DNA of 60,997 bases from Alphaproteobacteria bacterium. GTDB taxonomy: Bacteria; Pseudomonadota; Alphaproteobacteria; JAPYRI01. Of this stretch, positions 11,961 through 59,396 are shown one piece after another. Location of the stretch: contig JAPYRI010000005.1 of NCBI GenBank assembly GCA_029941135.1, positions 1-60,997 of the forward strand. Reading direction: 5' to 3'. Both the position numbers and the translations under genes were made by a program. Numbering within the stretch: the stretch's first letter is position 1; the number at the start of each line of letters is the position of its first letter. The notes beneath the pieces were generated by a model that worked only from the letters and a program-made list of their open reading frames with translations, ran no database searches and was not told the DNA's origin.

Positions 11961-11997
11961 ATCATGGCAGAACCAGTAGCAAGTAGTCATGCAGCAT

Positions 11998-12612: not shown

Positions 12613-12659
12613 AGTAAATTCCTGCCTGTCGATGGGTTAAAAGCCAGTGAGAGCTGCGA

Positions 12660-27496: not shown

Positions 27497-27526
27497 CCCC
27501 TTGAACACCTAGAACTGTAGGGTCCA

Positions 27527-29271: not shown

Positions 29272-29303
29272 CGGCGAGCAGTCCAGATAAAGGGAGATTG
29301 GTA

Positions 29304-30410: not shown

Positions 30411-30413
30411 CTT

Positions 30414-39417: not shown

Positions 39418-40620
39418 ATGACCGTAGACACTGTCCTTCCGAATACTCAAATCCCGAGTTACGAACTGTCTACCGATCAGATAGAAATTCGCGATCAGGC
39501 GCTCAAATTTTTCATGTCTGAATTCCACCCCTTGCAAGAGCGGATGGATAACGAGGACTGGTGGCCCGAGCATGCCATCCCGAAGTTGGGAGAAATGGGT
39601 TACTTGGGTCAAACAGTTGGCGAAGAATACGGCGGCGCGGGTCTCGATTACTTGACGTCAAGTGTCATAGCGGAAGTCATGACTTACGCCAATCCGGCCA
39701 TTGCCTTCAGTTGGCTTGGTCATGACAACCTGTGCCTCAACAATATTTATCGCAGCGGCAATGAAGATCAACGCAATCGTTATGTCCCAAAAATGTGTTC
39801 GGGCGAGTGGATTGGCGCATTGGGAATGACTGAGCCGGGAGCGGGATCGGATGCATTGGGGTCCATGCGAACGCGGGCGCGGCGTGAGGGCGATCATTAC
39901 GTCTTGAACGGTACCAAGATATTCATCACCAATGGACCGATCGCCGACGTGCTTTTGGTCTACGCCAAAACCGATATGGAAAAAGGCACGCGGGGTATCT
40001 CCGCCTTTATCGTTGAAAAGGGCTTCGAAGGTTTCCGGGTCGCGCAAAAACTGGACAAAATGGGATTTCGCGGCAGTCCCCTGGGCGAATTGGTGTTCGA
40101 CGACTGCATAGTACCGGTCGAAAACCTGGTCGGTGAAGAAAATCAGGGAGCGCGCATTATGATGACGGGCCTCGACATCGAACGCGCGATGGCGGTTCCT
40201 TTTGCCATTGGCATTGGCCAACGGGCTCTCGACCTCGCGCTTGATTACGCTCAAACTAGAGAACAATTTGGCAAAACGATCTCAAACTTTCAGATGATTC
40301 AGTCGAAGCTTGCAGAAATGTATATTAGGCTGGAAGCCGCCCGCTCTTTTGCTTACCGGGCAATTAGGGCGTGTGATAATATGCCCCATGGTGAAACCGG
40401 CCGTGGTGATATCCACAAATTGACCGCCGCGGCCCTATTTCATTCGGCGGAAGCGGCAACGTTTATCGCCGATGAGGCCGTTCAAATCCACGGTGGGATG
40501 GGGTATATGCGGGAAACCGAGGTCAATCGCTTGTACCGTTGTACAAAGGTCCTCGAGATCGCCGCTGGCACACAAGAAGTTCGCAAAATGATTATTGCCG
40601 GTGAAATGCTGAAAGGCTAA
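39418..40620 (+). CDS. Acyl-CoA dehydrogenase, isovaleryl-CoA dehydrogenase-like
   Basis: GMTEPGAGSD, LNGTKIFITNG, LDIER (IVD-type catalytic Glu), QIHGGMGY and EIAAGTQE (no MCAD-position Glu). Confidence 0.88.
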   Translation: MTVDTVLPNTQIPSYELSTDQIEIRDQALKFFMSEFHPLQERMDNEDWWPEHAIPKLGEMGYLGQTVGEEYGGAGLDYLTSSVIAEVMTYANPAIAFSWLGHDNLCLNNIYRSGNEDQRNRYVPKMCSGEWIGALGMTEPGAGSDALGSMRTRARREGDHYVLNGTKIFITNGPIADVLLVYAKTDMEKGTRGISAFIVEKGFEGFRVAQKLDKMGFRGSPLGELVFDDCIVPVENLVGEENQGARIMMTGLDIERAMAVPFAIGIGQRALDLALDYAQTREQFGKTISNFQMIQSKLAEMYIRLEAARSFAYRAIRACDNMPHGETGRGDIHKLTAAALFHSAEAATFIADEAVQIHGGMGYMRETEVNRLYRCTKVLEIAAGTQEVRKMIIAGEMLKG

Positions 40621-43278: not shown

Positions 43279-44022
43279 ATGTCGAATTCAAACGTAAAAG
43301 CCGCGCGCCGGACCCTCGACTTGCTGGAAGTATTCAGCTCCCGAAGAGAACCCATGTCCCTCACCGAACTGGCGACCGAAATTGGCGCCCCAAAAACCAG
43401 CTGTTTTGAGCTTCTTCAGACCTTAAAGGCACGCGGGTACTTGTATGCTTTAGGCCCCCGGCGCGGATACTATCCAACCCGGCGTTTTCTCGACCATGCG
43501 CAAGTCATAACCGAGAGCGACCCGGTGTTAAAACGTCTGGGATCAGCGCTCAAAAATCTGCGCGATGCAACCGGCGAAACGGTCATTCTGGGCAAGCAAC
43601 AGGGTAATGAAGTTGTCTATCTTCAGGTGATTGAGGGCCGTCAAAGCATTCGCTACTCGGCCCAGGCTGGCGACCAAAAACCCCTTCATTCCAGCGCCAT
43701 CGGAAAAGCATTTTTGGCTCAATTGAATGAAAGTGATCTCGACAATTTGCTCGCATCCCTGCCACTCAAGCAAATCACCTCGAAGACGTTCACCAACCAT
43801 GCTCGCCTTCAAGCCGACCTCGAGAGGGGCCGAAAACTGGGGTATTTTGTGACCCGGGGAGAAAACGTTGCAGACGTGACAGCCGTTGCAACGACCTTGT
43901 ATATTCATAGCGAGCCTTTTGGTGTTGCCGTCGCAGGACCGAGCGGACGTATGGATGCCGGTTTGGACACCGTATCCGCCAAACTGTTATCCCTAAAAGC
44001 GTCTGAGGAGAAAGCGCAGTGA
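43279..44022 (+). CDS. IclR family transcriptional regulator
   Basis: N-terminal HTH (SLTELATEIGAPKTS), TGETV and PLHSSAIGKAFLA. Confidence 0.93.
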   Translation: MSNSNVKAARRTLDLLEVFSSRREPMSLTELATEIGAPKTSCFELLQTLKARGYLYALGPRRGYYPTRRFLDHAQVITESDPVLKRLGSALKNLRDATGETVILGKQQGNEVVYLQVIEGRQSIRYSAQAGDQKPLHSSAIGKAFLAQLNESDLDNLLASLPLKQITSKTFTNHARLQADLERGRKLGYFVTRGENVADVTAVATTLYIHSEPFGVAVAGPSGRMDAGLDTVSAKLLSLKASEEKAQ

Positions 44023-44795
44023 GTAGCCACGACATCGTCGTATCGGTCGAAAATGACATCATCTTGCGGGTGACCGTCAACCGGTCTGAGAAGCGAAACG
44101 CTTTAAGCCGCAAAATTCTCAAATCGCTCGGCGAAATATTTGACGACTATTCGAGCCATGAAAATTTGCGGGTTGCTGTTTTGACCGGCGCGGGCGACAA
44201 AAGCTTTGCGGCAGGGGGTGATTTGAAGGATTTGAGTGTCTTACGCACACGGGAAGAGGCACGCGGTTTGGCGGATTTAGCCAAGAAGGCGCTTAACTCG
44301 GTGCGCAATTTTCCGGTGCCGGTGATCGCCGCACTGAATGGCAGTGCTATGGGCGGCGGCGCCGAATTGGCGATGGCGTGTGACTTTCGGGTTTCCACCA
44401 GGCACGCCCGCATTGGATTTGTGCAAGGGCGTCTCAATATTTCGACGGCATGGGGTGGCGGCGTAGACCTCATGAAATTGGTCGGTCCCAGCAAAGCCCT
44501 CGACCTGTTGTGCCGCAGCAGTATGCTTACCGCTGACGCTGCGTTGGCGATCGGGCTTATCGACCGGATTGCCGACGAGGACGAAGAGCTCGGTCATTGC
44601 GTAACCAATTTTCTGCAACCCTACCTACTGCAGGTGCCGCAAGTTTTGCGCGCGTTCAAGTCACTAACTATCGGCGCACGCCGCGGGTTACAACGAGCCG
44701 ATTTGGACGAAACTGAAACCGAGCAATTTGTCGGCACCTGGGTCCACGACGATCATTGGGCCGCAGCCGACAACGTACTCAGCAAGGGAAAATAG
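44019..44795 (+). CDS. Enoyl-CoA hydratase/isomerase (crotonase) family protein
   Basis: NRSEKRNAL, FAAGGDL and ALNGSAMGGGAELAMACDFR. The second catalytic Glu position appears to be Gln (FVQGRL). Confidence 0.88.
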   Translation: MSSHDIVVSVENDIILRVTVNRSEKRNALSRKILKSLGEIFDDYSSHENLRVAVLTGAGDKSFAAGGDLKDLSVLRTREEARGLADLAKKALNSVRNFPVPVIAALNGSAMGGGAELAMACDFRVSTRHARIGFVQGRLNISTAWGGGVDLMKLVGPSKALDLLCRSSMLTADAALAIGLIDRIADEDEELGHCVTNFLQPYLLQVPQVLRAFKSLTIGARRGLQRADLDETETEQFVGTWVHDDHWAAADNVLSKGK

Positions 44796-44798
44796 GTG

Positions 44799-46424
44799 AT
44801 GACACCGCCCAGCAAAGCAGCTTCCACTAGTTCTGCGGCTACGAAAGAACTCCGGCGCACACCTTCAGGCATTGAAATTCCGCTGATCGCGACCCCGAAC
44901 ATGCGGCAGGGCACTCTGGAAACTCCAGGAGAGGCGCCCTTTACCCGTGGTATTTTTCCCGACGGGTACCGGGGACGCATGTGGACCATGCGCCAGTATT
45001 CGGGATTTGGGACCGCCGAAGAATCGAACGAACGCTACCAATTTCTGATGGAACAAGGTCAAACCGGTTTGTCGGTCGCCCTCGACTTGCCGACACAATG
45101 CGGCTACGACCCAACCGACCCCATGGCGTCGGCAGAGGTCGGCAAAGTCGGGGTATCGCTTTCTAACCTGCGCGAGTTCGAGATACTGTTCAACAACATC
45201 GAACTGGACCGGGTATCCACGTCATTTACCATCAACGGCACGGCAGCAATCGTCTATGCCATGTACGTGGCCGCCGCCGATAAGGCGGGCATTCCGCGCG
45301 ATAAACTAACCGGCACAATCCAAAACGACATCCTCAAGGAATATGTCGCGCGGGGCACCTGGATTTTCCCGGTTCGGCCCTCGATGCGCCTCATCGCCGA
45401 CAGTGTTTTGTTCGCCAACAAAGAAACGCCGCGTTTCAATCCCATCTCCATCGCCGGCGCCCATGTGCGTGACGCGGGTTGCAATGCGGCTGAAGAAATG
45501 GGCTACACCCTGGCCAACGGCGTCGCCTATGTGGAAGAACTTTTGCGGCGCGGTGGCGACGTCAACAAGTTCGCCAAACGGCTAAGTTTTTTCTTCTATG
45601 TCCACATGGATTTCTTTGAAGAAATATCAAAGTTCCGCGCGGCGCGCCGTGTATGGGCCAACATTATGAAAGATAAGTTTGGCGCCACAGACCCCAAGGC
45701 CCTGATGTTCCGGTTTGGCGTCGTGTGTGGCGGATCGTCGCTCACCGCCGCGCAACCGCTGAACAATGTGGTCCGGGTAGGCATCGAAAATATGGCGGCG
45801 GTTCTGGGTGGCGCTCAATCCATCTTCACCTGCGCGTTTGACGAAGCTTTTCAGATCCCGACTGAACAAAGTGCCGAGCTCGCCCTGCGCACACAACAAA
45901 TCGTGGCGCATGAAAGCGGCATCGCCGACTCGGTCGACCCCTTGGGTGGCAGTTATTTTGTCGAGCACATGACCGACCAGATGGAAGCGGAAATCCTCAA
46001 AGTCATGGCGGATATCGACGAATATGGAGGCGTCGAAAAAGCGATTGAGGAAGGCTACATCCAAATGAAGATCGCCCAACGTGCCCGCGAGCGAAAAGAA
46101 AAAGTCGATAACGGGGAACGAATTGTCGTTGGCGTAAACAAGTATCAGCGGGACGAAACTGACCAGGGGTTTGGCGAAGTGTTTGAATTGGACCCTTCCG
46201 CGCGTGACCGAATACTCGATAAGTATCAAATGGTTATGGATACCCGTGACAATACGGAAGCGCAGAAACTTCTGCAACGGCTGGGCACCGCCGCCGCCGC
46301 CGAGGGGGAAAATCTTTTGCCGTATATTGTCGATTGTTGTCATGGCTATGTGACGGTTGGGGAAATGGTCGGTGAGCTAAAAAGTCACTGGGGTGAATTT
46401 CAAGAACCGGTTCGCCTGACATAG
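44799..46424 (+). CDS. Cobalamin-dependent acyl-CoA mutase, large (substrate-binding) subunit
   Basis: WTMRQYSGFG, GLSVALDLPTQ, GTIQNDILKEY and LRTQQIVAHESG. No fused B12 domain. Confidence 0.92.
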   Translation: MTPPSKAASTSSAATKELRRTPSGIEIPLIATPNMRQGTLETPGEAPFTRGIFPDGYRGRMWTMRQYSGFGTAEESNERYQFLMEQGQTGLSVALDLPTQCGYDPTDPMASAEVGKVGVSLSNLREFEILFNNIELDRVSTSFTINGTAAIVYAMYVAAADKAGIPRDKLTGTIQNDILKEYVARGTWIFPVRPSMRLIADSVLFANKETPRFNPISIAGAHVRDAGCNAAEEMGYTLANGVAYVEELLRRGGDVNKFAKRLSFFFYVHMDFFEEISKFRAARRVWANIMKDKFGATDPKALMFRFGVVCGGSSLTAAQPLNNVVRVGIENMAAVLGGAQSIFTCAFDEAFQIPTEQSAELALRTQQIVAHESGIADSVDPLGGSYFVEHMTDQMEAEILKVMADIDEYGGVEKAIEEGYIQMKIAQRARERKEKVDNGERIVVGVNKYQRDETDQGFGEVFELDPSARDRILDKYQMVMDTRDNTEAQKLLQRLGTAAAAEGENLLPYIVDCCHGYVTVGEMVGELKSHWGEFQEPVRLT

Positions 46425-46438
46425 GGGAGAAACATGAC

Positions 46439-46834
46439 GTGTCGCTAAAAGGAAAACGAATATTGATCGCAAAGCCCGGTTTGGACGGTCACGACGTGGG
46501 CGCAAAGATCATTGCCCTCGCCTTGCGGGACGCAGGTGCGGACGTCATCTACACTGGTCTCAGAAAATCACCTGAATACATTGCGCGCATAGCGGTCGAT
46601 GAAGATGTGGACGCGGTGGGACTAAGTATCCTCTCAGGTTCTCACAATGAATTGGTCGCGGAAACCATAAAACTGCTCCGCGAGATGGATGCAGATGATG
46701 TCAAAATTTTTGTCGGGGGCACCGTTTCCGGCGACGACGTGCAAAAACTTAAAGTCGCTGGTGTGGCCGGTGTATTCACCAGCGAAATGAAAATCGAAGA
46801 TACCCTAGCTGAACTTTCCGACGTTCTAGGCTGA
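46439..46834 (+). CDS. Cobalamin-binding small subunit of the acyl-CoA mutase
   Basis: AKPGLDGHDVG (DxHxxG), GLSILSG and VGG. Confidence 0.93.
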   Translation: MSLKGKRILIAKPGLDGHDVGAKIIALALRDAGADVIYTGLRKSPEYIARIAVDEDVDAVGLSILSGSHNELVAETIKLLREMDADDVKIFVGGTVSGDDVQKLKVAGVAGVFTSEMKIEDTLAELSDVLG

Positions 46835-46838
46835 TCTG

Positions 46839-47546
46839 TTGCCGGGTGGATCTTCGCGCCGCCTTGCCGTTTGGATGCTGGCGGCTCTCGCCACTGCAAT
46901 TGCCGCCTTCATTGTTTACCTCATGATCCGATTTCCTGAGGCCTTATCGGATCGGGATTCTAAAATTGGCCTCACCCATCAACTGTTGTGGCTTCTTTTA
47001 TTGGTCAGCAGTTTTGCCGTTCGCTGGCGTACTTCACCTGGCGAAACCTTGCGCAACATTGCCATTTGGGTTGCCGTTGCCGCGACCATCGGCGCTGGTT
47101 ACAGTTTCCGCCATGAATTTGAAGCGGTTGGCAACCGCATGATGTTCGAACTTGTGCCTCATCGCGGTCAAGTGGCGAATAATCGCATTACTTTTCGCGC
47201 GCGAACTAGTGGACATTTTGTTGTCGAGGCGCTTGTTGACGGCACAGCTCTCAGGTTTCTCGTTGACACCGGTGCAACCGACGTGGTTCTCAGCCCCTCA
47301 GACGCTCAACTCTTGGGCTTTGATCTGAAGTCGCTCAAGTTTACGCGCGTTTACCACACGGCAAATGGAACAGTGCGAGGCGCACCTGTGCGTCTGCGGC
47401 AGATTACGTTAGGACCGATCGCAATGCGCGACGTCCGCGCATCCGTCAACGAAGCACCCATGACTTCTTCGCTGCTGGGCATGAGTTTTCTGAGCAGACT
47501 GTCCAGTTACAAGGTCAGTAAAGATACTCTCACCCTTACCCCTTAA
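46839..47546 (+). CDS. TIGR02281-type clan AA (retropepsin-like) aspartic protease, membrane-anchored
   Basis: TM helices, GHF, FLVDTGAT, TANG and SLLGMSFL. Start position uncertain. Confidence 0.85.
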   Translation: MPGGSSRRLAVWMLAALATAIAAFIVYLMIRFPEALSDRDSKIGLTHQLLWLLLLVSSFAVRWRTSPGETLRNIAIWVAVAATIGAGYSFRHEFEAVGNRMMFELVPHRGQVANNRITFRARTSGHFVVEALVDGTALRFLVDTGATDVVLSPSDAQLLGFDLKSLKFTRVYHTANGTVRGAPVRLRQITLGPIAMRDVRASVNEAPMTSSLLGMSFLSRLSSYKVSKDTLTLTP

Positions 47547-48975: not shown

Positions 48976-50055
48976 ATGAAATTCGGCGCAATGGTCGCGA
49001 CCAAAATTGACAACTGGCAATTGCTCAAAGAAGCGGAGGACCTGGGCTACGACCACGCTTGGGTGCCCGATTCTCAAATGATCTGGTCTGACTGCTACGC
49101 GACGCTGGCATTGCTTGCCGAGCATACGTCACGCATCAAAATCGGCACTGGAGTTGCGATTACCGGCACGCGCGCGGCGCCCGTAACCGCGCACTCAATC
49201 GCCACCATCAATCGCTTGGCGCCGGGGAGGACGTTTCTCGGTATTGGCACCGGCCACACCGCCATGCGGGTGATGGGCATGAACCCCACAAAACCGAAGG
49301 CATTTCGCGAATATTTGCGAGTGGTACGCGCGTTGCTGGCGGGCGAAGAAGTTGAATACACCCTGGATGGGCAAACCCAGGCGATCAAGTTCCTCCATCT
49401 CGACCGCAATTTCATCGATATCGCGCATGAAATACCCATTTACGTGGCAGCAAACGGGCCAACCGCGCTCAAATCAGCCGGCGCCTACGGGGATGGTCGG
49501 ATCTCGGCCCTCAGCGAACCCGCCGATATGACCGCCGCGAGCTTGGATCAGGTAAAAGTTGGCGCTGACGAAATTGGGCGCGAATTTCCCTCTGATTTTC
49601 ATACGGCCGCCCTAACCACGGCGACTGTCCTAAAACCTGGCGAGACTCTCAAGACCGATCGGATCATTGACGAATGTGGCTCTCAAGTGATGGCCGCATT
49701 TCACTATGTGTACGAAGTATTCAAGTTGACCCAGGACGAAAGCATCGTACCGCCTTCAATCGAAAACGATTGGGAAGCTTATTGCCAACGAGTAGCCCAA
49801 ATGGAAACACCGGAAGAAAAACGCTATTTGGAACTACACGAAGGTCATTGCTCTTATCTCGTGCCGGAAGAGCGGCGGTTTGTCACGCCGGACGCGATTA
49901 GAACTTTCTGCCTGGCTGGAGAACCCGATGAAATCATTGATGAATTGCGCGAGCGGGAGAGATCCGGCCTGAAGGAAATAACACTACTGCCACCCATGGA
50001 CTACGCACGCAATGTGCTGCGCGATTTCTCGGAATTGGTCATGGCAAAGTACTAA
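48976..50055 (+). CDS. LLM class (luciferase-like) flavin-dependent oxidoreductase
   Basis: AEDLGYDHAWVPDSQ, TSRIKIGTGV, GRTFLGIGTG and PIYVAANGP. GGAGG RBS before ATG at 48976. Confidence 0.88.
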   Translation: MKFGAMVATKIDNWQLLKEAEDLGYDHAWVPDSQMIWSDCYATLALLAEHTSRIKIGTGVAITGTRAAPVTAHSIATINRLAPGRTFLGIGTGHTAMRVMGMNPTKPKAFREYLRVVRALLAGEEVEYTLDGQTQAIKFLHLDRNFIDIAHEIPIYVAANGPTALKSAGAYGDGRISALSEPADMTAASLDQVKVGADEIGREFPSDFHTAALTTATVLKPGETLKTDRIIDECGSQVMAAFHYVYEVFKLTQDESIVPPSIENDWEAYCQRVAQMETPEEKRYLELHEGHCSYLVPEERRFVTPDAIRTFCLAGEPDEIIDELRERERSGLKEITLLPPMDYARNVLRDFSELVMAKY

Positions 50056-50083
50056 GTCCGGCAATCAACATTGGGAGCAAACC

Positions 50084-50794
50084 TTGGTAAAACCCTTTTT
50101 CGACACCGACAAATATACCCGCGAGCCGGCGTCCCCCACGGTGATTGCCTTTCATAAAGCGATCAAAGATCTGGTGCGCAGCCACATGGAAGCGGGCGGT
50201 AATTGGAACGCCTTTGTCTTTGGCGAGCAGGAAAACGTGGTCAACGCCGATGCCCTTCAAGCCATCGAAGATGCGTTTCTGAAAACCGGCTATCGGTATC
50301 AAGGCTCGGCAATGATTTCGATTGAGGAGGAGCCAGAAAAATACCAAATTTTGGCGACCGCCACCAACTCGGAAATTAAATTGCCGCCCCCGGATGCGAA
50401 CGGCCGCATCTTGTGCGGCACCGGCGACAATGTGGTCCAGTTTTCTGAAAATACCGTCGGGACAGCGCTATATGTGCGCACGAGCGAGCAGGTTCTTTCG
50501 CTGCTGGAAGACGGCGTGCCCGACAACACCATTGCCATCATTGACGACAGTGGTGGCACCTTGACTGCGCCCGTACTTGAGTACTTCAAAGGAGTTGTAT
50601 GCATGGGCGGCACGGTGCGCTCTCATTTGGGTATCCTGTGCCGGGAATACGGCATTCCATGTCTCATGAACTCTGGTGTTGCCGGCATCGAGGACGGCGA
50701 CGCGGTCGAGATGGAAACCTCCGCCGCCGCCAAAACTGCCGAGGCCTATCAGAAAAATATTGAGATGACCGCAAACATCTGGAAACAATGCTGA
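50084..50794 (+). CDS. Stand-alone PEP-utilising 'mobile' (swivel phospho-His) domain protein with an unknown N-terminal domain
   Basis: GVVCMGGTVRSHLGILCREYGIPC...GIEDGDAVEM resembles the GGxxSHxAIxAREYGIPAV phospho-His signature. TTG at 50084 follows GGAG. Confidence 0.8.
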   Translation: MVKPFFDTDKYTREPASPTVIAFHKAIKDLVRSHMEAGGNWNAFVFGEQENVVNADALQAIEDAFLKTGYRYQGSAMISIEEEPEKYQILATATNSEIKLPPPDANGRILCGTGDNVVQFSENTVGTALYVRTSEQVLSLLEDGVPDNTIAIIDDSGGTLTAPVLEYFKGVVCMGGTVRSHLGILCREYGIPCLMNSGVAGIEDGDAVEMETSAAAKTAEAYQKNIEMTANIWKQC

Positions 50795-50812
50795 CGAAAG
50801 GCTAATTGCCCC

Positions 50813-52966
50813 GTGACCCTTCCCATTACTTACGCCCAATTATTGGAGACCAACAATCTGGTTCAGGCGTGCAACGACGAATCCTATTGGCTGTGCGTCA
50901 CCCGCACGGTACAAGAATCGAAGTTGTTCCCCGTACCCGCCTATATGTTGCTGTCCTACCTGATGGTCTACTACCGGTATCCTGAGCTGCTGCGCAAAAT
51001 CGAAACCAGCATGCGGGCTGAAGACATCGGCGACCGGTCACGCAACATGGGAATCAAAACCCAAGCGTCCCATATTGCCTGGTGCATGCCCGGATTTTAC
51101 CTTCTTGCGCGCGAATATCTGATCAGCATGGGCCTTATCCGTCCTCAAGACGGGGTCGAAGACTTGGTTTACCTGATGGATTTTTGGAAGCGGCATCAAC
51201 TGTCGTGGCATCGGAACGATGGTCACATCTCCAATAAGGAGTTCGGCCACCGGAGCCAAATCCTGCCTGAACGCCTGCTTCAAATTTTTGAAGCTGATTT
51301 ATTCGAATGCCGTCAGGGCGATAGCCTCCACGAAGCAGCGATGAAGTTCACGGCAACCGTCTCCCAGTATATTTTTCTCATTCACTGCGAAAGTCGAATC
51401 GGCCTCGCCAACACCGGGCCGTACAAGTTTGGTGACAACCGGGAGCTATTGGTCCGTGATTTTATGGACCTCTCCGAGGGCGACTATCCATGGATGGACG
51501 GGGTTGCAACCGACGTCCCCTACAACAATTTGACCATTCCCATGGTGGTCGAGGATTGCCATTTCTATTTGGTGGATGACTGGGCGAGCTTTGAATCCGA
51601 GCCCGAATTCAAAGCCGAGAAAGTCGTGAGCGTTGGCCTCTACACGTCGGACACGTTGAGTGAAGGCTACATGCCGGTCGGCATGGATAGCGCGGAAGAA
51701 CTCGCCAAAACTTTCGTCGATCTGAACGAGACCGTCAAAGAAGCCAGCGCCAAGCTGTGGAAGCGAATTGCCGGCTGGTCCCGGGAAGAGATGATGGACG
51801 CGGGCGCCCTCACCTATTTTTCGGTGATAAAGGACTTAGCCCACGTTGCCGGGGTTTATGAGTTCGATGATTGGATGACCATCGATGCGCGTGCCGAACG
51901 CTTCCGGCCTATATTGAATGATGAGTATGGCCGTGATTGCCTGGGTGAACTGCTCGGCTCGATGACCAACCCCAATCAACAGATAAATGAATATTCAATG
52001 ATGCAGCATTCCAATTTGCCGCAGCGTATGTTCTCCCACGTTCCCTATTCGATATTAGCGGACGGCGACTTCACCGCCACTTGCGGTAGAACGCAGGCAG
52101 GTACCAGTCACATGAGCGCCAAAACCGGTAAGTACCGAACGACACGGGGCTTGCTTGACTTGGACGACTACAATCGGCTTGCGCGCGATTTCACACCCAA
52201 GGTGTGTTCTGACAAATTTCGTTTCCTCGACGAAAATTGGGTCAAATACAATTACGACACGCCGCTTGCCGACGAACTTTACAGGGCGGAGCAAGAATCA
52301 TCTCGCAATCTGCAGGGCAAAGGCGCAGGTCTGAAGCGGGTTGACCTGCCACCTTCTCCCCCGCCAAGCGGCGATTTGCTCGCACTCCACGGATTAGCGA
52401 TCAAAAAGATGAGCACAGCTGACGTGGTTGCAGACATTCTTGGACTCGAGGTCACAGATGTATCAACCGCACTGGAAGCCGCCGTCGCTGCTCAGCAAGT
52501 TGCTATCGTAAGAGACGCCTTTATGTTGAAGCCTGCGGGGCAAGCGGCGCTCGACGCAGCCTACCCAAAAATGTTCGCGGGTTTGCGGGCAAGCGAAGAT
52601 TTCGTTGCTGCTTACGAGCGATTCGAAGTTGTAAATAACGATTTGAAGCAGTTGATTACCGACTGGCAAACCCTGGAAATTGCAGGCTCGAGGGTGCCCA
52701 ATGATCACAGCAACAAAGACTACGATGACGGCATTATCGATCGCTTGGGTACCTTGCATGATCGTGCGGAAACTGTGCTGGATGTCTTAGCGTTGGCCGA
52801 AACCCGGCTCGGCCGCTACACCGACAAATTGCTGGTGGCGCTTGAGAAATCCGAAGATGGCGAAACAGATTTCGTGAGCGGGGCCCGGGTCGAGTCCTAT
52901 CACACGGTTTGGTTTGAGTTACACGAAGATTTGCTGCGGATTTTGGGCCAAGAGCGGGACGAGTAG
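50813..52966 (+). CDS. 717-aa hypothetical fusion protein: ~510-aa unknown domain, Pro linker, ~200-aa wHTH/helical domain resembling mycobacterial Rv1126c
   Basis: Long ORF packed between operon genes. Linker PPSPPPS at about aa 513. The C-terminal AYERF..VN.DLKQLITDWQ...PNDH...YD...SYHTVWFELHEDL resembles, from memory, the protein encoded next to M. tuberculosis ppdK. Confidence 0.75.
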   Translation: MTLPITYAQLLETNNLVQACNDESYWLCVTRTVQESKLFPVPAYMLLSYLMVYYRYPELLRKIETSMRAEDIGDRSRNMGIKTQASHIAWCMPGFYLLAREYLISMGLIRPQDGVEDLVYLMDFWKRHQLSWHRNDGHISNKEFGHRSQILPERLLQIFEADLFECRQGDSLHEAAMKFTATVSQYIFLIHCESRIGLANTGPYKFGDNRELLVRDFMDLSEGDYPWMDGVATDVPYNNLTIPMVVEDCHFYLVDDWASFESEPEFKAEKVVSVGLYTSDTLSEGYMPVGMDSAEELAKTFVDLNETVKEASAKLWKRIAGWSREEMMDAGALTYFSVIKDLAHVAGVYEFDDWMTIDARAERFRPILNDEYGRDCLGELLGSMTNPNQQINEYSMMQHSNLPQRMFSHVPYSILADGDFTATCGRTQAGTSHMSAKTGKYRTTRGLLDLDDYNRLARDFTPKVCSDKFRFLDENWVKYNYDTPLADELYRAEQESSRNLQGKGAGLKRVDLPPSPPPSGDLLALHGLAIKKMSTADVVADILGLEVTDVSTALEAAVAAQQVAIVRDAFMLKPAGQAALDAAYPKMFAGLRASEDFVAAYERFEVVNNDLKQLITDWQTLEIAGSRVPNDHSNKDYDDGIIDRLGTLHDRAETVLDVLALAETRLGRYTDKLLVALEKSEDGETDFVSGARVESYHTVWFELHEDLLRILGQERDE

Positions 52967-52972
52967 TTCGGA

Positions 52973-54700
52973 ATGGAGTCGGCTGAGAACAAGAGGTCCG
53001 AGAACAAATGGGTAATGCGGCTCGACGGTGCGACCTTGCCCGACCGCGATCTGATCGGCGGTAAGGCGTGGAGCATAGCACGCCTGCGCAACCTGGGCTT
53101 GCCCACTTCACCCGCCGTTGCGGCTACCACCGAGGCATGCCGTGCCTTTATGAAAACTGGTGATCTCCCCGCTGGCCTGATGGACGAGCTTCGTGTCGGC
53201 ATTGAAGAGATTGAACACGAGACCGGACGAAAGTTTGGTGGCACTGAACATCCCTTGCTGGTCGCGGTCAGATCGGGTGCGCCGATCAGCATGCCAGGCA
53301 TGATGGACACAGTGCTCAATTTAGGCATGACAGATGCGGTCGAACTGGCACTGGCACAAGAAAGCGGCGATCCGGAATTTGCCGCCGACACCCGGCGTCG
53401 ATTTCTCGAACTTTACGACACCATTGTGCTCAAAAATTCCGGTGCCGAGGTGCCGGAAACTGCCGACGCGCAGTTGGCAGGTGCCGTACGCGCCGTGTTT
53501 GAGTCGTGGAATTCCCGGCGCGCTAAACGTTATCGCAAACACAACGGCATCCCCGACGACCTTGGTACAGCGGTTACAATTCAGGCCATGGTGTTCGGAA
53601 ACCTAGACGATCAGAGCGGCACTGGTGTTTTATTCAGCCGCAATCCCTTGACCGGCGACCCCGCACCCTACGGCGAATATCTCGCTTGTGCGCAAGGAGA
53701 AGACGTGGTGTCAGGCAAAGTGACGCCGCAGCCGCTTTCCGCCCTAGAGGCCGCCCAACCGGGCGCCCACAAAGAATTGTTGAAGGCGGCCGCCTTATTG
53801 GAGTGTGAAAGCGGCGACGTTCAGGATATCGAGTTCACCATCCAACAGGGCAAATTGTATTTGCTCCAATCGCGGTCGGCCAAAAGATCGCCCTCTGCGG
53901 CCGTTCGCTTTGCCATCGATTTCGTGCGCGAAGGAAAGATCGACAAAAGTGAAGCCTTGCGCCGGGTGACATCCGAACAAATACGCACTTTGCTTCGCCC
54001 GCGTCTTGAAGACGGAGCTGACAACCGCCCTAAGCCTGTCGCGGTAGGTGAAGCTGCTTGTCAGGGTGTTGGTGTTGGTGTTGTCGTGACCGCCGCGGAC
54101 AGCGCCGAGGCCGAAGCCGCAAAGGGCCACAAAGTTATACTTGCCCGCCCCACCACCAGCCCCGAAGACGTGCATGGCATGCTGGTTGCCGAAGCCGTCA
54201 TCACCGAACAAGGGGGGCCAACTTCCCATGCAGCGGTGGTCAGTCGGGCGTTGGGTTTACCCTGTGTGGTCGGATGCGGCGATGGTGCGTTGACCAACCT
54301 CGGTGGCCAGACTGTCACCGTGGATGGCGAAAAAGGGCACGTTTATGACGCGGTATTACCGGTAAAAGTGCCGGACGAAAGGGAAGAAGGCGGCCTCAGC
54401 GACCTCATTAATTGGGCTTCTGAGATTTCCCCCGTGGTGGTGTACAGCGCTTCTGACGCCCTACCTGAAAGTCTAGGTGATGCCGACATTGTTGATTTGG
54501 ATCACTTGACCGATGGTGAAGACTCCGATCATATCGCTCGCTTACTTAATGGTGCGATTGCTGCCCGGGGCAGCATCCTGAATTCGGACGCAGGCGTGTC
54601 CGCCGCGATAAGATCCGGTGTCAAAACCATCATTGTCCGCCACACCCTACCGGCCCTCCTGGCCGCGTGCGCGAATACGGATACCATTACAGAAACTTGA
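52973..54700 (+). CDS. Truncated pyruvate phosphate dikinase-like protein (ATP-grasp and phospho-His domains, no PEP/pyruvate barrel)
   Basis: GGKA, VRSGAPISMPGMMDTVLNLG, QAMVFGN, AQGEDVVSG, QDIEFT..GKLYLLQSR and GGPTSHAAVV. Only 575 aa; none of the C-terminal PPDK motifs are present. Confidence 0.88.
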   Translation: MESAENKRSENKWVMRLDGATLPDRDLIGGKAWSIARLRNLGLPTSPAVAATTEACRAFMKTGDLPAGLMDELRVGIEEIEHETGRKFGGTEHPLLVAVRSGAPISMPGMMDTVLNLGMTDAVELALAQESGDPEFAADTRRRFLELYDTIVLKNSGAEVPETADAQLAGAVRAVFESWNSRRAKRYRKHNGIPDDLGTAVTIQAMVFGNLDDQSGTGVLFSRNPLTGDPAPYGEYLACAQGEDVVSGKVTPQPLSALEAAQPGAHKELLKAAALLECESGDVQDIEFTIQQGKLYLLQSRSAKRSPSAAVRFAIDFVREGKIDKSEALRRVTSEQIRTLLRPRLEDGADNRPKPVAVGEAACQGVGVGVVVTAADSAEAEAAKGHKVILARPTTSPEDVHGMLVAEAVITEQGGPTSHAAVVSRALGLPCVVGCGDGALTNLGGQTVTVDGEKGHVYDAVLPVKVPDEREEGGLSDLINWASEISPVVVYSASDALPESLGDADIVDLDHLTDGEDSDHIARLLNGAIAARGSILNSDAGVSAAIRSGVKTIIVRHTLPALLAACANTDTITET

Positions 54701-54710
54701 GGATTGTGGC

Positions 54711-55193
54711 TTGGATCAAACAAAGAACAATATTCGTGCGCTAGTAAGATTGTTCGAGCAATCGGACTGGGATGAACTACGCGTTGAAACCAAAGACTTA
54801 AAGCTCGTAATTTCGAAAAATGCGAACGCACCTGGCCTGACGGTTTTAGAGAATGCACCACGCACACGATTGCCCAGTACCGCGGACGCCGAAATCACGG
54901 ATGCGACTGAACCCGCCGCCAAAAGCGAACCGGCTGAAATTCCTGAAGGATTGGTGGCGGTGCGGGCACCCAATTTGGGCACCTTTTGGCGCGCCCCCAA
55001 ACCTGGCGCCGCGCCCTATATCGAAGTTGGGCAAAAAGTAAATGCCGACACGATGGTGTGCTTGATCGAAGTGATGAAGTTGTTCACCCCAATAAATGCG
55101 GGAATTGCTGGCACCGTCGTCGAACTTGTCGCTGAGAACAGCGCCATGGTCGAATACGGCGATACCCTTGTCCTCATTGATCCCAGCACTTGA
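54711..55193 (+). CDS. Biotin carboxyl carrier protein
   Basis: APNLGTFWRAPKPG, IEVMKL (biotin Lys) and VEYG. TTG at 54711 follows GAGG. Confidence 0.92.
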   Translation: MDQTKNNIRALVRLFEQSDWDELRVETKDLKLVISKNANAPGLTVLENAPRTRLPSTADAEITDATEPAAKSEPAEIPEGLVAVRAPNLGTFWRAPKPGAAPYIEVGQKVNADTMVCLIEVMKLFTPINAGIAGTVVELVAENSAMVEYGDTLVLIDPST

Positions 55194-55214
55194 TCTGGAC
55201 GAGCACCTAATCTC

Positions 55215-56585
55215 ATGAACCTCTCGCGTGTATTTGTCGCCAATCGGGGAGAAATCGCGGTGCGAGTGCTGCGCGCTTGTCGCAAGCTTGAGCTCTCTTC
55301 AGTAATTGGCGTGTCGGAGGCCGACCAGGAAAGCACCGGGGCAATGATGGCTGATCGTGCAATTGTTATAGGCCCAGCTCCCTCAAAGGACAGCTACCTC
55401 AAGCCAGACCTCATCGTTTCGGCAGCGGTAAACAGCGGTTGCGATGCGCTTCATCCTGGCTATGGTTTCTTGTCTGAACGCGGTGAACTGGCCGAAATGT
55501 GTGCCGAAAACGGGATCGCTTTCGTTGGCCCCACAGCCGATACCATTCGTAAAGTGGGCGATAAAATTTCTGCCAGGGAACTAGCCCGCGCGGCCGGAGT
55601 TCCCCTGGTTCCCGGATCCGGCGAAGTGTCCACTGTGGAGCAGGCCAAATCAGCGGCAAGCGACGTGGGTTATCCTATCGTACTGAAAGCGACCGCCGGC
55701 GGCGGCGGGCGTGGTATGGCAGTCGCCCGGGCGGACGAAGACATTGCGAGAACTTTCGACGCCGCGTCCTTAGAAGCCGAAGAAGCGTTCGGCGACGGCA
55801 CTCTTTACGTGGAACGCTTTGTTGAGAACGCCCGCCATGTGGAAGTTCAGATATTGGGTGACGGCAAAGGCAACGTGCTTCATTTCGGCGACCGGGATTG
55901 TTCAGCCCAGCGGCGTTATCAAAAAGTCGTGGAAGAAGCCCCCGCAACTGCTGTGCCGGATGATATTCGCACGAACATGCGTGAAGCTGCCGTGCGCTTG
56001 GCCAAAAGTATCAATTACCGCAATGCGGGCACCGTCGAATTTCTCTACGATCAAAACCACAATGCGTTCTACTTCATCGAAGTGAATGCGCGCATCCAAG
56101 TCGAACATCCGGTCACCGAAGAGATTACCGGCGTTGATCTGGTGGTCGCGCAACTCAAAATCGCGGCCGGCGAACCCCTCGGGTTAACTCAAGACATGAT
56201 CGCACTCAGCGGACACGCCATCGAATGCCGGATCAACGCCGAAATGCCGCTGCGGGACTTCGCGCCATCGCCTGGACGAATTACCGCCTGGTTGCCACCC
56301 GAGGGCGACGGCGTACGTGTCGATAGTCATTGCGAGCAGGGCTACACGGTTCCGCCCTATTATGACAGCATGATTGGGAAGCTGATCGTCCACGGCGCGA
56401 CCCGCACGGAAGCCATATCGCGCATGCGTGGCGCGCTCGCCGATTTCCGCATCGATGGCATACATACCAATACCCACTTGCAAGCCTTTCTGGTGGGCCA
56501 TCGGGATTTCAAAGACAATAAAATTAACACCAAATGGCTGGAGACAACTCTCCTGCCCGCGTATTCAAGCGTAATGGGAGATTAG
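55215..56585 (+). CDS. Biotin carboxylase
   Basis: ANRGEIA, HPGYGFLSE, GGGGRGM, RDCSAQRRYQK, EVNARIQVEHPVTE and YYDSMIGKL. Confidence 0.95.
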   Translation: MNLSRVFVANRGEIAVRVLRACRKLELSSVIGVSEADQESTGAMMADRAIVIGPAPSKDSYLKPDLIVSAAVNSGCDALHPGYGFLSERGELAEMCAENGIAFVGPTADTIRKVGDKISARELARAAGVPLVPGSGEVSTVEQAKSAASDVGYPIVLKATAGGGGRGMAVARADEDIARTFDAASLEAEEAFGDGTLYVERFVENARHVEVQILGDGKGNVLHFGDRDCSAQRRYQKVVEEAPATAVPDDIRTNMREAAVRLAKSINYRNAGTVEFLYDQNHNAFYFIEVNARIQVEHPVTEEITGVDLVVAQLKIAAGEPLGLTQDMIALSGHAIECRINAEMPLRDFAPSPGRITAWLPPEGDGVRVDSHCEQGYTVPPYYDSMIGKLIVHGATRTEAISRMRGALADFRIDGIHTNTHLQAFLVGHRDFKDNKINTKWLETTLLPAYSSVMGD

Positions 56586-56591
56586 ATCGGA

Positions 56592-58061
56592 ATGGCGGTA
56601 ATTGAGTTTCTTGATGAGACCATGCGAGACGGGCAGCAAAGCCTGTGGGGCATGCGCATGCAGGCGGGCATGGCGCTGCCCATTACCCCCACCATCGACA
56701 AGGTTGGTTTTCGGGTCGTTGACCTCACCGGCAGCTCCATGTTCGAAGTGCTGATCCGCCATTGCCAGGAAAACCCCTGGGAGGGCCTCGATCTATTAGT
56801 CAGTTCCATGCCCAACAGCAAAATCCGTGCGGGTATGCGCAGTAACGCGGCAGTGACCTTTGGGGTGACCCCCGACGCTTTAATGGATGTGTGGATGCAT
56901 CAGCTCTGCCGTCACGGCATCAAGAGCATGTGGATTTATGACGTCCTGTTCAACATCGACAAGACCTACCGATTGGCAAAGATCGCCAAGGAATATGATG
57001 TCGAAGTGGCGGGCGCGATCATGTTCACCATGAGCCCCGTGCACACCGACGCACACTACGCAGACAAGGCGCAGAAGCTCGCTGCATGCGCGGATATCGA
57101 CACCCTGTTACTCTACGACACGGCTGGCGTTTTGGGCCCGGAGCGTTTGCGCACCCTGGTGCCGGCTCTCATTGAGCAGGCCAACGGTAAGCCGATCGAA
57201 TTTCACTCGAACAATATACTGGGCGCGTCAGCCATTGCTTATCTGGAGGCGGTCAAGTTGGGCGTCACCATTTTGCATACTGCAAGTCGTCCCATGGCCA
57301 ACGGCCCTTCGGTGCCATCGACCGAGATTATGGTGCGGAACATCGAATTGCTAGGACACAGCCATGGTCTAGATACGTCGTTGTTGCCGCCCATTGCCGA
57401 ACATTTCGAAAAAGTTGCCTCAGCCGCCGGTTTCCCAACAGGCGTGCCCAATGAGTATGATTTGTTTTCAATCGAGCATCAGATCCCCGGCGGCATGGTC
57501 GGCACCTTTAAGGCCCAACTCGATCAGCACAAAATGCCGGAAAAACTGGACGAAGTGCTGGCAGAATCTGCCATCGTCCGGCGCGAACTGGGTTACCCTG
57601 GCATGGCGACCCCGTTTTCGCAATTGGTGGGCACGTTGGCGGTGCTGAACGTGGTGACCGGCAAGCGCTATACAGTCATCCCGGACGAGGTGATCCAATA
57701 CGCCGCCGGATACTACGGTGACCCGGTTGCACCGATCGATCCGAACGTATTGGACATCATTATGGGCTCGGCTCGCGCCAAGGAAATTCTGACCTCTCCG
57801 CCAGCCCAGCCCAGTCTTGAGGACTTAAGAAAAGAGTTCGGCACCGGCGATGACGACGACGAGCTCATCTTGCGGGCTCTGGTTCCCGAAGCCGATCTGG
57901 ATAAAATGCGCGCAGCCGGGCCAGTCAAACAAACTTATCCTATGCTGTCATCGCCAGAGCTTGAATACGCGCGCAAACTGATGGCCAGCACCAGCGCCAA
58001 TTTTCTTGAAATCGAAACCACCGACCTGTCGCTGTCGTTGCGCCGAGGCCCAAACTCTTAG
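56592..58061 (+). CDS. Carboxyltransferase of the pyruvate carboxylase B / oxaloacetate decarboxylase alpha / XccA type, with atypical metal site
   Basis: DETMRDGQQSL, HQIPGGM and LGYPGMATPFSQ. The KD motif reads YD and the HxH motif reads HSN. Confidence 0.85.
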   Translation: MAVIEFLDETMRDGQQSLWGMRMQAGMALPITPTIDKVGFRVVDLTGSSMFEVLIRHCQENPWEGLDLLVSSMPNSKIRAGMRSNAAVTFGVTPDALMDVWMHQLCRHGIKSMWIYDVLFNIDKTYRLAKIAKEYDVEVAGAIMFTMSPVHTDAHYADKAQKLAACADIDTLLLYDTAGVLGPERLRTLVPALIEQANGKPIEFHSNNILGASAIAYLEAVKLGVTILHTASRPMANGPSVPSTEIMVRNIELLGHSHGLDTSLLPPIAEHFEKVASAAGFPTGVPNEYDLFSIEHQIPGGMVGTFKAQLDQHKMPEKLDEVLAESAIVRRELGYPGMATPFSQLVGTLAVLNVVTGKRYTVIPDEVIQYAAGYYGDPVAPIDPNVLDIIMGSARAKEILTSPPAQPSLEDLRKEFGTGDDDDELILRALVPEADLDKMRAAGPVKQTYPMLSSPELEYARKLMASTSANFLEIETTDLSLSLRRGPNS

Positions 58062-58128: not shown

Positions 58129-59349
58129 ATGGCGAATCCGAGCAAGACTCTGTTTTCCGGGTTGCGAATCCTCGACTTGACCCGGGCCGTCGCCGGACCC
58201 ACATGCACGCGCATGTTCTCTGAGCTGGGGGCGGACGTGATTAAAGTGGAGGCTTTTCCGGAAGGTGATCTGACCCGTCAGGTATCCAAAATCAGAAACG
58301 AGCGAAGTCTGTACTTCGTTCAGCAAAATCTTGGCAAAAAAAGCCTATGCGTTGATCTGCGCAATCCGAAAGGTCTGCAATTGGTCAAGGATTTAGTGCC
58401 ATTGGTCGATGTCGTGGTGCAAAACTTCAAGCCCGGGGTGATGGCGTCAATGGGGATGGCCTACGACGATCTGAAGGAGCTAAAGCAAGACATTATCTTG
58501 TGCTCGATATCGTCGCTCGGTCAGACCGGCTCACTTGCTGAAAAGCCCGGCTACGACATGATCGCCCAATCTTACGCGGGCGTAACATCGATGGTCGGTG
58601 ACCCGGACGATGCACCTTGCTTTCCCCAATTGGCGATCGGCGACGTCAGCACCGGTGTCATGGGAGCTTTCTCAGTGCTCGCCGCCCTCTATCACCGGGA
58701 CCGTACCGGCGAAGGTCAACACTTGGACGTGAGCATTCTCGACACTTACTACCATAGCCACGAAGCAAGCGTTCATCAGTACAGCGGCAGCAACGGTAAG
58801 ATCGAACCCAACAGAACCGGTCGCCATATGAATTATTTGGCCCCAGCCGGCGTTTTTCGCGCCAATGGAGGCTATATCACGATCATGTCTTTCCTCCATC
58901 ACTGGAAGGATTTATGCGCGGCAATGGACCGCCCCGAATTGGCAGAAGACGAAAGATTAGGAAACGATGAAGGCCGCCTCGAGAATTTGGATGAAGTCAT
59001 TGAGTTGATCGAAAGCTGGCTCCAGAATTTTCCGGACCGGGATACCGCAATGGACAAACTTGACGAATTTGGTGTGCCGGCGGGCCCTGTCTTAACGATC
59101 GCCGAAACAGTCGCCCATCCTCACCTTCGAGAGCGAGGGACTGTGCGCACAATTGATGATCGGATTGCGGGAAAATTCGAGATCCCCGGCTTGCCGCCGA
59201 AGTTCTCAAAGTTCCCCGACTTGCCCGAGTTCGATGCGCCTACTTTGGGTGAGCACAACGAAGAGATTATAACCAATATCCTGGGTCGTTCAGACGACGA
59301 GCTTGCTGAGTTAAGGAATGCCGGGATCCTAAAAGAGAAAAATATTTGA
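58129..59349 (+). CDS. Class III (CaiB/BaiF) CoA-transferase, copy 1
   Basis: ILDLTRAVAGP, GADVIKVE, NLGKKS, NFKPG, GYD, IGD (catalytic Asp) and PTLGEHN. Confidence 0.93.
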   Translation: MANPSKTLFSGLRILDLTRAVAGPTCTRMFSELGADVIKVEAFPEGDLTRQVSKIRNERSLYFVQQNLGKKSLCVDLRNPKGLQLVKDLVPLVDVVVQNFKPGVMASMGMAYDDLKELKQDIILCSISSLGQTGSLAEKPGYDMIAQSYAGVTSMVGDPDDAPCFPQLAIGDVSTGVMGAFSVLAALYHRDRTGEGQHLDVSILDTYYHSHEASVHQYSGSNGKIEPNRTGRHMNYLAPAGVFRANGGYITIMSFLHHWKDLCAAMDRPELAEDERLGNDEGRLENLDEVIELIESWLQNFPDRDTAMDKLDEFGVPAGPVLTIAETVAHPHLRERGTVRTIDDRIAGKFEIPGLPPKFSKFPDLPEFDAPTLGEHNEEIITNILGRSDDELAELRNAGILKEKNI

Positions 59350-59396
59350 ACGAATAGCGGTTAATCGAATTCAATATTTAGGGGGAAGAAATTATC

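Follow-up and report, generated by a model that had tools for sequence, protein, structure and literature searches.

Which acyl-CoA is rearranged by the B12-dependent mutase encoded on contig JAPYRI010000005.1 of Alphaproteobacteria bacterium JAPYRI01 (assembly GCA_029941135.1, our genome G000, in which this contig is C5), and does this enzyme belong to one of the mutase classes described so far? We analyzed a stretch of 60,997 nt from this contig, hereafter referred to as the window. An earlier note on this DNA had read positions 44799..46834 as one mutase; the mutase assignment stands, but the span is occupied by two adjacent genes on the + strand rather than a single one. The first encodes the large (substrate-binding) subunit of 542 aa (44796..46424, +; PF01642, TIGR00641), and the second the small subunit, a B12-binding domain of 131 aa (46439..46834, +; PF02310, TIGR00640). 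The large subunit starts with GTG at 44796, and position 44799 corresponds to the following codon, ATG. The mutase barrel domain is full-length, matching PF01642 with 643 bits over profile positions 1–512 of 512, and the large subunit scores 644 bits against TIGR00641 (cut-off 303.8). The small subunit scores 80.5 bits against PF02310 and 135.1 bits against TIGR00640, and it contains a DxHxxG motif (D16-G-H18-D-V-G21) that we take to be the motif for base-off/His-on cobalamin binding. Judged by the analyses described below, the pair is almost certainly an active adenosylcobalamin (AdoCbl)-dependent mutase acting on an acyl-CoA that bears a carboxylate and is distinct from both methylmalonyl- and ethylmalonyl-CoA, and we consider it probable that it is a functional split acyl-CoA mutase from a widespread clade that interconverts a bulky R-succinyl-CoA and the matching (R-methyl)malonyl-CoA.

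The register of the pocket residues was counted on an HMMER alignment of the large subunit to methylmalonyl-CoA mutase (MCM) from P. shermanii (PDB 1REQ chain A, in which chain index + 1 gives the published numbering) and cross-checked with MAFFT alignments of 79, 161, 139, and 145 sequences in which Escherichia coli ScpA was included. The MAFFT alignments reproduce the HMMER register with no gap beside any of the motifs, which in the large subunit are RQYSG at position 66, YVARGT at 183, IAGAHVRD at 219, RFGVVC at 306, and QSIFTCAFDE at 341. The five kept and six changed residues listed in the earlier note are all in register with P. shermanii MCM, and neither alignment method revealed a misregistered substitution. 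Tyr89 (Y68), Gln197 (Q176), Arg207 (R186), His244 (H223), and Glu370 (E350) are kept; Tyr243 is changed to A222, Glu247 to D226, His328 to G308, Gln330 to V310, His364 to F344, and Asn366 to C346. The full signature in MCM numbering, used from here on, reads Y89 R207 / A243 H244 D247 / F327 G328 V329 V330 C331 / F364 T365 C366 A367 F368, and the Arg at position 246 is retained in the alignment as well. Because Tyr and Arg, rather than F/Q or I/Q, occupy positions 89 and 207, we rejected an assignment to the isobutyryl-CoA mutases (ICM-type, F/Q) or the 2-hydroxyisobutyryl-CoA mutases (HCM-type, I/Q), and the previous placement among carboxylate-type mutases holds. Together, the substitutions remove one phenol, two imidazole, and two amide groups and bring in Ala, Gly, Val, Phe, and Cys. 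The side-chain sizes suggest that the pocket is larger and hydrophobic next to the carbon that migrates; for Tyr243, His328, and Asn366, the paralogs encoded in the same genome served as a reference.

Conservation of this signature was determined in a set of 121 sequences consisting of the query and its 120 best homologs, which are 70–90% identical to it and come mainly from alpha- and gammaproteobacterial metagenome-assembled genomes (MAGs), plus Binataceae and one Pararhizobium. Positions A243, H244, D247, F327, G328, V329, V330, C331, F364, and A367 are invariant (121/121), and position 366 is Cys in 91 sequences and Ala in 30. Because they are invariant in all 121 sequences, the replacements are under selection rather than the result of drift. 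We also fetched 80 genome loci, 75 of which could be aligned after five with a match shorter than 450 residues had been dropped. The query signature is present in 11 of these 75 loci, which are 68–74% identical to the query and derive from Bradyrhizobium, Burkholderiales, SAR324, and Pseudomonadota MAGs, and the full six-residue set of MCM is present in 63 loci that are ~50% identical and whose sources include Chloroflexota, Bacteroidota, and Acidobacteriota. The remaining locus (L006; Dehalococcoidia MAG) is odd in its pocket: it encodes a split mutase with Tyr89/Arg207 and the pocket YIAAS/GVHTK. A sister branch represented by P0123 (56% identity), which a homolog search with P0123 identified as actinobacterial and the named members of which are Acidimicrobiia and Frankiaceae, keeps A243, H244, D247, G328, F364, T365, and A367 and varies at positions 327, 329, 331, and 368.

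Phylogenetic trees were built with FastTree (LG + gamma) from 139 sequences over 499 columns and then from 145 sequences, which comprised full-coverage representatives of 50%-identity clusters, the related loci, the paralogs from the genome, and E. coli ScpA. Seven proteobacterial and five actinobacterial sequences form one clade with a support of 0.999. This clade lies outside the split-MCM clade (support 0.979), the fused MCMs including E. coli ScpA, and the ethylmalonyl-CoA mutase (ECM) of the same genome, and it is also apart from the F/Q (ICM-type, IcmF) and I/Q (HCM-type) sequences; clustering with ordinary two-subunit MCMs, which would have spoken against the earlier note, does not occur. 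The nearest neighbors of the clade in the tree are other pocket types lacking assignment, joined with a support of just 0.77–0.79. The signature and the tree support ranking the carboxylate-type (Tyr89/Arg207) acyl-CoA mutases of this clade as a class of their own. To this extent the proposal of a new mutase class is borne out, but mutases for bulky substrates as such had already been proposed (IaaGH and MatB/ActD, discussed below). When 150 proteins representing clusters at 50% identity (P0123–P0272) were compared, dozens of pocket signatures were found to retain Tyr89/Arg207, and most of them match no characterized specificity. A further split mutase with Tyr89/Arg207 and an unusual pocket, TFSGS/HTACW, is encoded in locus L192 among genes for a molybdenum (Mo)-hydroxylase, a carboxyltransferase, a TRAP transporter, and two CoA ligases. 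We regard the clade as one among many mutase specificities awaiting assignment and not as a lone oddity.

The mechanism that we propose is by analogy with MCM and ECM. The small subunit would bind the cofactor base-off/His-on, the 5'-deoxyadenosyl radical would take a hydrogen from the substrate, the CoA-thioester carbonyl would shift between adjacent carbons, and the hydrogen would be given back. The free carboxylate of the substrate would be gripped by Arg186, Tyr68, and His223 (Arg207, Tyr89, and His244), and the wall facing the migrating carbon would be rebuilt from the small or hydrophobic residues A222, G308, V309, V310, C311, F344, C346, and A347. A wall rebuilt in this way would lead us to expect the interconversion of an R-substituted succinyl-CoA and the matching (R-methyl)malonyl-CoA, with an R that exceeds the methyl group handled by ECM in both size and hydrophobicity. 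Gly328 and Val329 are shared with the ECM of the same genome, an enzyme for a substrate one carbon larger than that of MCM, and this supports the proposed reaction.

The genome context of the relatives is informative about the pathway. Operon content was counted in 23 related loci, with downstream genes counted in the 16 of these that have at least 2 kb of downstream sequence. The operon of the relatives encodes an IclR-family regulator, an atypical crotonase, the large and small mutase subunits, a family-III CoA-transferase, the GTPase MeaB, and a TRAP transporter. The IclR gene is in the same position in 16 of the 23 loci with 47–51% identity to the regulator of the window (76% in the metagenome contig L101), and the atypical crotonase is directly 5' of the mutase in all 21 loci that have room for it. 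An orthologous family-III CoA-transferase follows directly 3' in 14/16 loci (60–100% identity among themselves), MeaB is present in 13/16, and the TRAP transporter in 11/16; in many cases, another CoA-transferase and another crotonase come next. Subunits of acyl-CoA carboxylases are encoded near the mutase in several loci (L007, L012, L102, and L108). The presence of a CoA-transferase, MeaB, and a TRAP carboxylate importer in most relatives suggests that an organic acid is taken up and catabolized.

In the window, the cassette begins with the gene for the IclR-family transcriptional regulator (43279..44022, +; PF09339, PF01614), which overlaps by 4 bases with the gene for the atypical crotonase-family protein ECH* (44019..44795, +; PF00378). 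There is no gap between the crotonase and large-subunit genes and a gap of 14 bases between the genes for the large and the small subunit. Where relatives carry the CoA-transferase, a gene for a clan AA aspartic-protease-like protein of the TIGR02281 family, recognized by NCBIfam profile search (46839..47546, +), begins 4 bases past the small subunit; a TIGR02281 gene follows the mutase in L101 (80% identity) and was not seen there in the other related loci. Neither a cobalamin riboswitch nor any other Rfam family matched the window at the gathering score. DNA of the cassette was found in hydrothermal-vent and marine metagenome runs, and no RNA run is among the 24 runs listed.

The atypical crotonase scores below every NCBIfam cut-off. 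An alignment to the 3-hydroxybutyryl-CoA dehydratase in PDB 5JBW revealed that the first of the two Glu residues that we presume to be catalytic in crotonases is retained (GGGAELA) and the second is replaced by Gln, and Gln is found at this second site in 13/13 of the cassette crotonases. The protein may act as a decarboxylase or epimerase of a malonyl-type intermediate, which is a guess.

Several observations weigh against the bulky-substrate reaction or its operation in this organism. The replacement of His364 by Phe adds bulk to a pocket that we suppose to be enlarged, and given that dozens of Tyr89/Arg207-keeping signatures exist, a pocket change alone gives no direction of specificity. 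We rejected an assignment of the crotonase as a ScpB-type decarboxylase, as it is 24% identical to E. coli ScpB and has no equivalents of His66 and Tyr140 (numbering from the alignment), the presumed catalytic residues of ScpB. The cassette of the window retains the first four operon genes only and lacks the CoA-transferase, MeaB, and the TRAP transporter. No MeaB is encoded in the window, as had been stated previously, and the PF03308 matches in G000 are on contigs C12 (a free MeaB), C56 (a MeaB in two pieces beside MCM), and C72 (the G domain of IcmF), not on C5; the free-standing MeaB from C12 is 39% identical to the operon MeaBs. We found no convincing ortholog of the operon CoA-transferase among the 17 family-III matches in G000, the best of which has 39% identity. 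With these three partners missing from the cassette, function in this organism depends on borrowed ones. Lastly, our literature search turned up neither enzyme assays nor structures nor genetic phenotypes for members of the clade.

The genome itself provides controls for the nearest alternative. G000 (3.0 Mb in 178 contigs, 95% complete) encodes four mutases including the query. The others are a canonical fused MCM (NF006944, 1281.7 bits versus a cut-off of 876), an IcmF (1757 bits versus a cut-off of 1500) with F/Q at the Tyr89/Arg207 positions, and an ECM of 678 aa on contig C104, the gene for which is the divergent neighbor of ccr, which encodes crotonyl-CoA carboxylase/reductase (CCR; TIGR01751, 564 bits versus a cut-off of 378.55). 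The signature of this ccr-linked ECM is YHE/YGVQV/QLPAW, in agreement with the earlier assertion that ECM has the H328G change and lacks Asn366. Two features of the MeaB loci were observed on the side. MeaB beside the canonical MCM (C56, ~11954–12773; L086, L088) reads as open reading frames (ORFs) of 205 and 179 aa, which could be due to a frameshift, to misassembly, or to a genuine division of the gene. The free MeaB on C12 (L095) is flanked by three tandem family-III CoA-transferases, and a fourth is encoded a few kb away together with a crotonase and an acyl-CoA dehydrogenase.

It is conceivable, although in our judgment unlikely, that the query is a second ECM/methylsuccinyl-CoA mutase or an MCM for catabolism, for example, of imported methylsuccinate or succinate, and that its pocket changes are neutral. 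The retention of Tyr89, Arg207, His244, Gln197, and Glu370, the occurrence of G328 and V329 in the ECM of the same genome, and the similarity of the relatives' operon to E. coli scpA-argK-scpB-scpC all fit this possibility, as do the best NCBIfam matches of the operon transferase, which are succinate-glutarate and succinyl-CoA:mesaconate transferases and all below cut-off. However, a canonical MCM and a ccr-linked ECM are already encoded in G000, the residues Y243, E247, and Q330 of ECM are replaced in the clade by residues that are invariant in 121/121 sequences, and the tree separates the clade from ECM and from the two MCM clades. A Y243A mutant of P. shermanii MCM is reportedly strongly impaired. 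As an MCM, the query was rejected with scores against NF006944 of 552.7 (large subunit) and 103.7 (small subunit) versus the cut-off of 876 and with six MCM pocket residues replaced; as an ECM, it was rejected on the basis of a pocket signature that differs from that of the ccr-linked enzyme and its separate branch. Profile scans of the window ORFs identified no ccr near the query mutase.

The neighborhood of the cassette bears on the remaining alternatives. Upstream, the window encodes a cytochrome P450, an SCP-x-type thiolase, an acyl-CoA dehydrogenase, and a three-subunit Mo-hydroxylase; downstream of the small subunit, the protease-like gene is followed by genes for a P450, a luciferase-like monooxygenase, and two phosphoenolpyruvate (PEP)-utilizer/pyruvate phosphate dikinase (PPDK)-like proteins around a 717-aa protein, and then for a biotin carboxyl carrier protein, a biotin carboxylase, a 5S-type carboxyltransferase, and two CoA-transferases. 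The entire arrangement recurs in one metagenome contig, L101, with 68–93% protein identity. The neighboring carboxylase and CoA-transferases had been cited as consistent with a substituted malonyl- or succinyl-CoA substrate, but they are not good support for it: by type, the carboxyltransferase matches the 5S subunits of pyruvate carboxylase/oxaloacetate decarboxylase and not those of an acyl-CoA carboxylase, and the two CoA-transferases of the window are only 29–31% identical to the operon transferase of L007. The acyl-CoA dehydrogenase (39418–40620) has AAG in place of the catalytic YEG of most family members, and not the GGG of benzylmalonyl-CoA dehydrogenase, together with a GLDIER stretch, an arrangement that resembles that of isovaleryl-CoA dehydrogenases, in which the base has moved to another helix. 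The PEP-utilizer/PPDK-like/carboxylase genes and the two family-III CoA-transferase genes after them form a co-directional block (50012–58061 and 58129–60617), the members of which include a 260-aa protein with only a PEP-utilizer mobile domain, a 575-aa PPDK-like protein, and the PYC_OADA carboxyltransferase. The 717-aa protein has no Pfam, NCBIfam, or PDB match, and its Atlas matches are sub-threshold only. This block, which is syntenic in L101, may be an ATP- and biotin-dependent carboxylase system of an undescribed kind. Upstream in the window (25895–32845) and unrelated to the mutase, there is a cluster resembling that for quinohemoprotein amine dehydrogenase, with an alpha subunit, a radical S-adenosylmethionine maturase, an ATP-binding cassette exporter, and a subtilase.

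An aryl-substituted substrate such as phenylsuccinyl- or benzylmalonyl-CoA would make the query an enzyme with the proposed job of IaaGH and an independently evolved pocket, and we hold this to be quite unlikely. IaaGH, encoded in the iaa operon of Aromatoleum, is described as a mutase proposed to act on (2-aminophenyl)succinyl-/benzylmalonyl-CoA, and according to the same paper, IaaF-type dehydrogenases have GGG where others have YEG and always occur in iaa-like operons, including those of Rhodopseudomonas (PMC8360864). The Mo-hydroxylase, acyl-CoA dehydrogenase, thiolase, and family-III CoA-transferases of the window are enzyme types that also occur in the iaa-like clusters, and in the locus of the closest named relative (L018, 75% identical), hydantoinase A/B genes come right after the mutase and CoA-transferase. 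We searched 201 genomes of the Bradyrhizobium family and fetched six intermediate matches, recognizing iaa-like clusters by the GGG dehydrogenase; the comparison is with the mutases of these clusters. In all five iaa-like clusters found (L198–L202), a dehydrogenase with ...LIGGGTS... is followed by the small and then the large mutase subunit (5/5), and the clusters additionally encode a CoA ligase (4/5), hydantoinase A/B (3/5), a Mo-hydroxylase (3/5), and a family-III CoA-transferase (3/5). The iaa-linked mutases are 41–46% identical to the query, have the signature Y243 H244 E247 / M(I/L)AGG / ALCC(Y/F), and form a clade of their own (support 0.979–0.994). This different signature and separate clade, together with AAG instead of GGG in the dehydrogenase of the window, led us to reject an IaaG-type assignment for the query, and most members of the clade are encoded in a TRAP operon without a hydantoinase or Mo-enzyme. 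A mutase of the iaa-linked type was also seen beside a Mo-hydroxylase and a dehydrogenase in a Burkholderiaceae MAG (L188).

Improbable in our assessment is a polar-substituted carboxylated acyl-CoA, for example, a hydroxy-, oxo-, or amino-C4–C6 dicarboxylyl-CoA, as the substrate, in which case the enzyme would not be a simple homolog of ECM for longer alkyl groups. Specificity for a hydroxyacyl group has already arisen in the family, with HcmA being the best PDB match by score, Glu247 is replaced by Asp and Arg246 is retained, and MmgE/PrpD-type and HpcH-type genes are present near some relatives. Nevertheless, the polar groups of Tyr, His, Gln, His, and Asn have been lost and no new polar side chain has appeared at the positions examined. 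A more specific version that we regard as decidedly improbable is that the enzymes of the clade serve to resolve carbons that are quaternary or carry heavy branching, for example, by converting 2,2-dimethylsuccinyl-CoA to isopropylmalonyl-CoA and back via a tertiary radical, or by acting on a similar branched pair, with the crotonase decarboxylating the product to an isovaleryl-type CoA ester; the importer would then have been stripped in the vent/marine lineage and the cassette wired into the island of P450, luciferase-like monooxygenase, and carboxylase genes beside the isovaleryl-CoA-dehydrogenase-like enzyme. Finally, it is very improbable that the cassette in G000 is a remnant no longer used after loss of the CoA-transferase, MeaB, and transporter, since, although these three partner genes are absent here and have no clear ortholog in a 95% complete genome, none of the four genes that remain is disrupted, their spacing is tight, and the reduced arrangement and its flanks are kept in L101 at 76–93% protein identity, which is unexpected for decaying genes.

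The clade is sparse yet very widely spread. We identified it in 1 of 400 sampled genomes from the phylum of the window, in none of 80 relatives of the window's genome, in 1 of 400 sampled genomes (plus the MAG itself) from the order of the Burkholderiales MAG, and in 7 of the 201 genomes of the Bradyrhizobium family. Bradyrhizobium manausense (G472, contig C12) has two copies ~30 kb apart (L007 and L196), one of which is in a full operon and the other of which consists of the crotonase, both mutase subunits, and MeaB without the CoA-transferase.

To our knowledge, the acyl-CoA mutase specificities that have been assayed are few, namely, those for methylmalonyl-, ethylmalonyl-, isobutyryl-, 2-hydroxyisobutyryl-, and pivalyl-CoA. 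Each new mutase specificity has exposed a pathway or provided a tool for engineering carbon skeletons. The clade described here is sharply defined and highly conserved in soil Bradyrhizobium, Burkholderiales, SAR324, actinobacteria, and vent/marine bacteria, and its dedicated importer, regulator, and CoA-transferase make the question of which acid it acts on directly testable in cultivable carriers. Many genomes have a gene of this kind that is now annotated as methylmalonyl-CoA mutase; identification of the substrate would tell what this gene does and could uncover a B12-dependent catabolic route; if the version with branched carbons were true, this would be an aerobic B12 route for fragments of terpenoids or branched hydrocarbons that are otherwise dead ends. 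The literature that we searched contains no paper on the clade or its operon, and the only mutases for bulky substrates that it names are IaaGH and the hexylmalonyl-CoA mutase. Papers on the Variovorax iad auxin locus do not mention a methylmalonyl-CoA mutase, and PMC11599936 contains nothing on family classification. Our analysis contributes a direct test against iaa-type mutases, an ECM control from within the genome, and the description of a reduced cassette in a conserved oxygenase/carboxylase island.

How does the query compare with the mutases and operons that are already known? MCM (PDB 1REQ, human MMUT 2XIJ, and E. coli ScpA) belongs to the same family with PF01642 and a B12 domain and has the residues of the carboxylate clamp and of radical handling, Tyr89, Gln197, Arg207, His244, and Glu370, in common with the query, which is ~42% identical both to E. 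coli ScpA and to the MCM of its own genome. Unlike these two proteins, which retain all six MCM pocket residues, the query has replaced them, is split in two genes, and is in a separate clade. Of the varied positions, the ECM of the genome shares only Gly328, Val329, and A367 with the query, and it likewise lacks Asn366; however, it is fused, 38% identical to the query, on another branch, and ccr-linked. In its signature YHE/YGVQV/QLPAW, against AHD/FGVVC/FTCAF in the query, Y243, E247, and Q330 are unchanged, and positions 364 to 366 are Q364, L365, and P366. Thus, the query clade goes beyond ECM in that Y243, E247, Q330, and H364 are also changed with respect to MCM. Among solved structures, HcmAB (PDB 4R3U) is the best scoring (485.5 bits, E value 2e-144) and has the same two-subunit architecture, but HcmA has Ile/Gln at positions 89/207 and therefore no carboxylate clamp, and it keeps Y243, H328, Q330, H364, and N366.

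At the level of gene content, E. coli scpA-argK-scpB-scpC (the "sleeping beauty" operon) has the same list of parts as the operon of the relatives, that is, a mutase, a MeaB-type GTPase, a crotonase, and a CoA-transferase. It differs in that the crotonase of the clade is not ScpB-like and the window is without MeaB and the operon transferase; moreover, ScpC is not known to be a family-III CoA-transferase, whereas the operon transferase of the relatives is. In the reaction proposed, the query is comparable to MatB/MatQ and ActD, which are proposed to convert (2R)-hexylmalonyl-CoA to 2-pentylsuccinyl-CoA in the biosynthesis of matlystatin and actinonin (PMC5719088). By this description, these enzymes are split into large and small subunits and would act on a long-chain alkylmalonyl-CoA in the kind of reaction that we propose for the query. 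They are, as described there, biosynthetic, and their actinomycete gene clusters also encode a CCR, an epimerase, an AsnB-like enzyme, and an N-oxygenase; Pfam and NCBIfam scans of the window detected none of these four partners. General scans of the window likewise revealed no glycyl-radical enzyme; linkage to alkylsuccinate synthase genes would be expected for a (1-methylalkyl)succinyl-CoA mutase of anaerobic alkane degradation.

IaaGH-like enzymes have in common with the query that they are split carboxylate-type mutases for a substrate with a bulky substituent (proposed in both cases) and work with a family-III CoA-transferase, and the iaa-linked and query mutases fall in one and the same broad group of split mutases, a radiation with 35 terminals and a support of 0.909. 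The order of the two mutase genes differs, with the small subunit first in the iaa-linked pairs and the large subunit first in the query. The iaa-type mutases appear to enlarge the pocket in another way than the query clade, opening it elsewhere, with I/L at position 328, G at 330, G at 331, and A at 364, while Y243 and E247 are kept.

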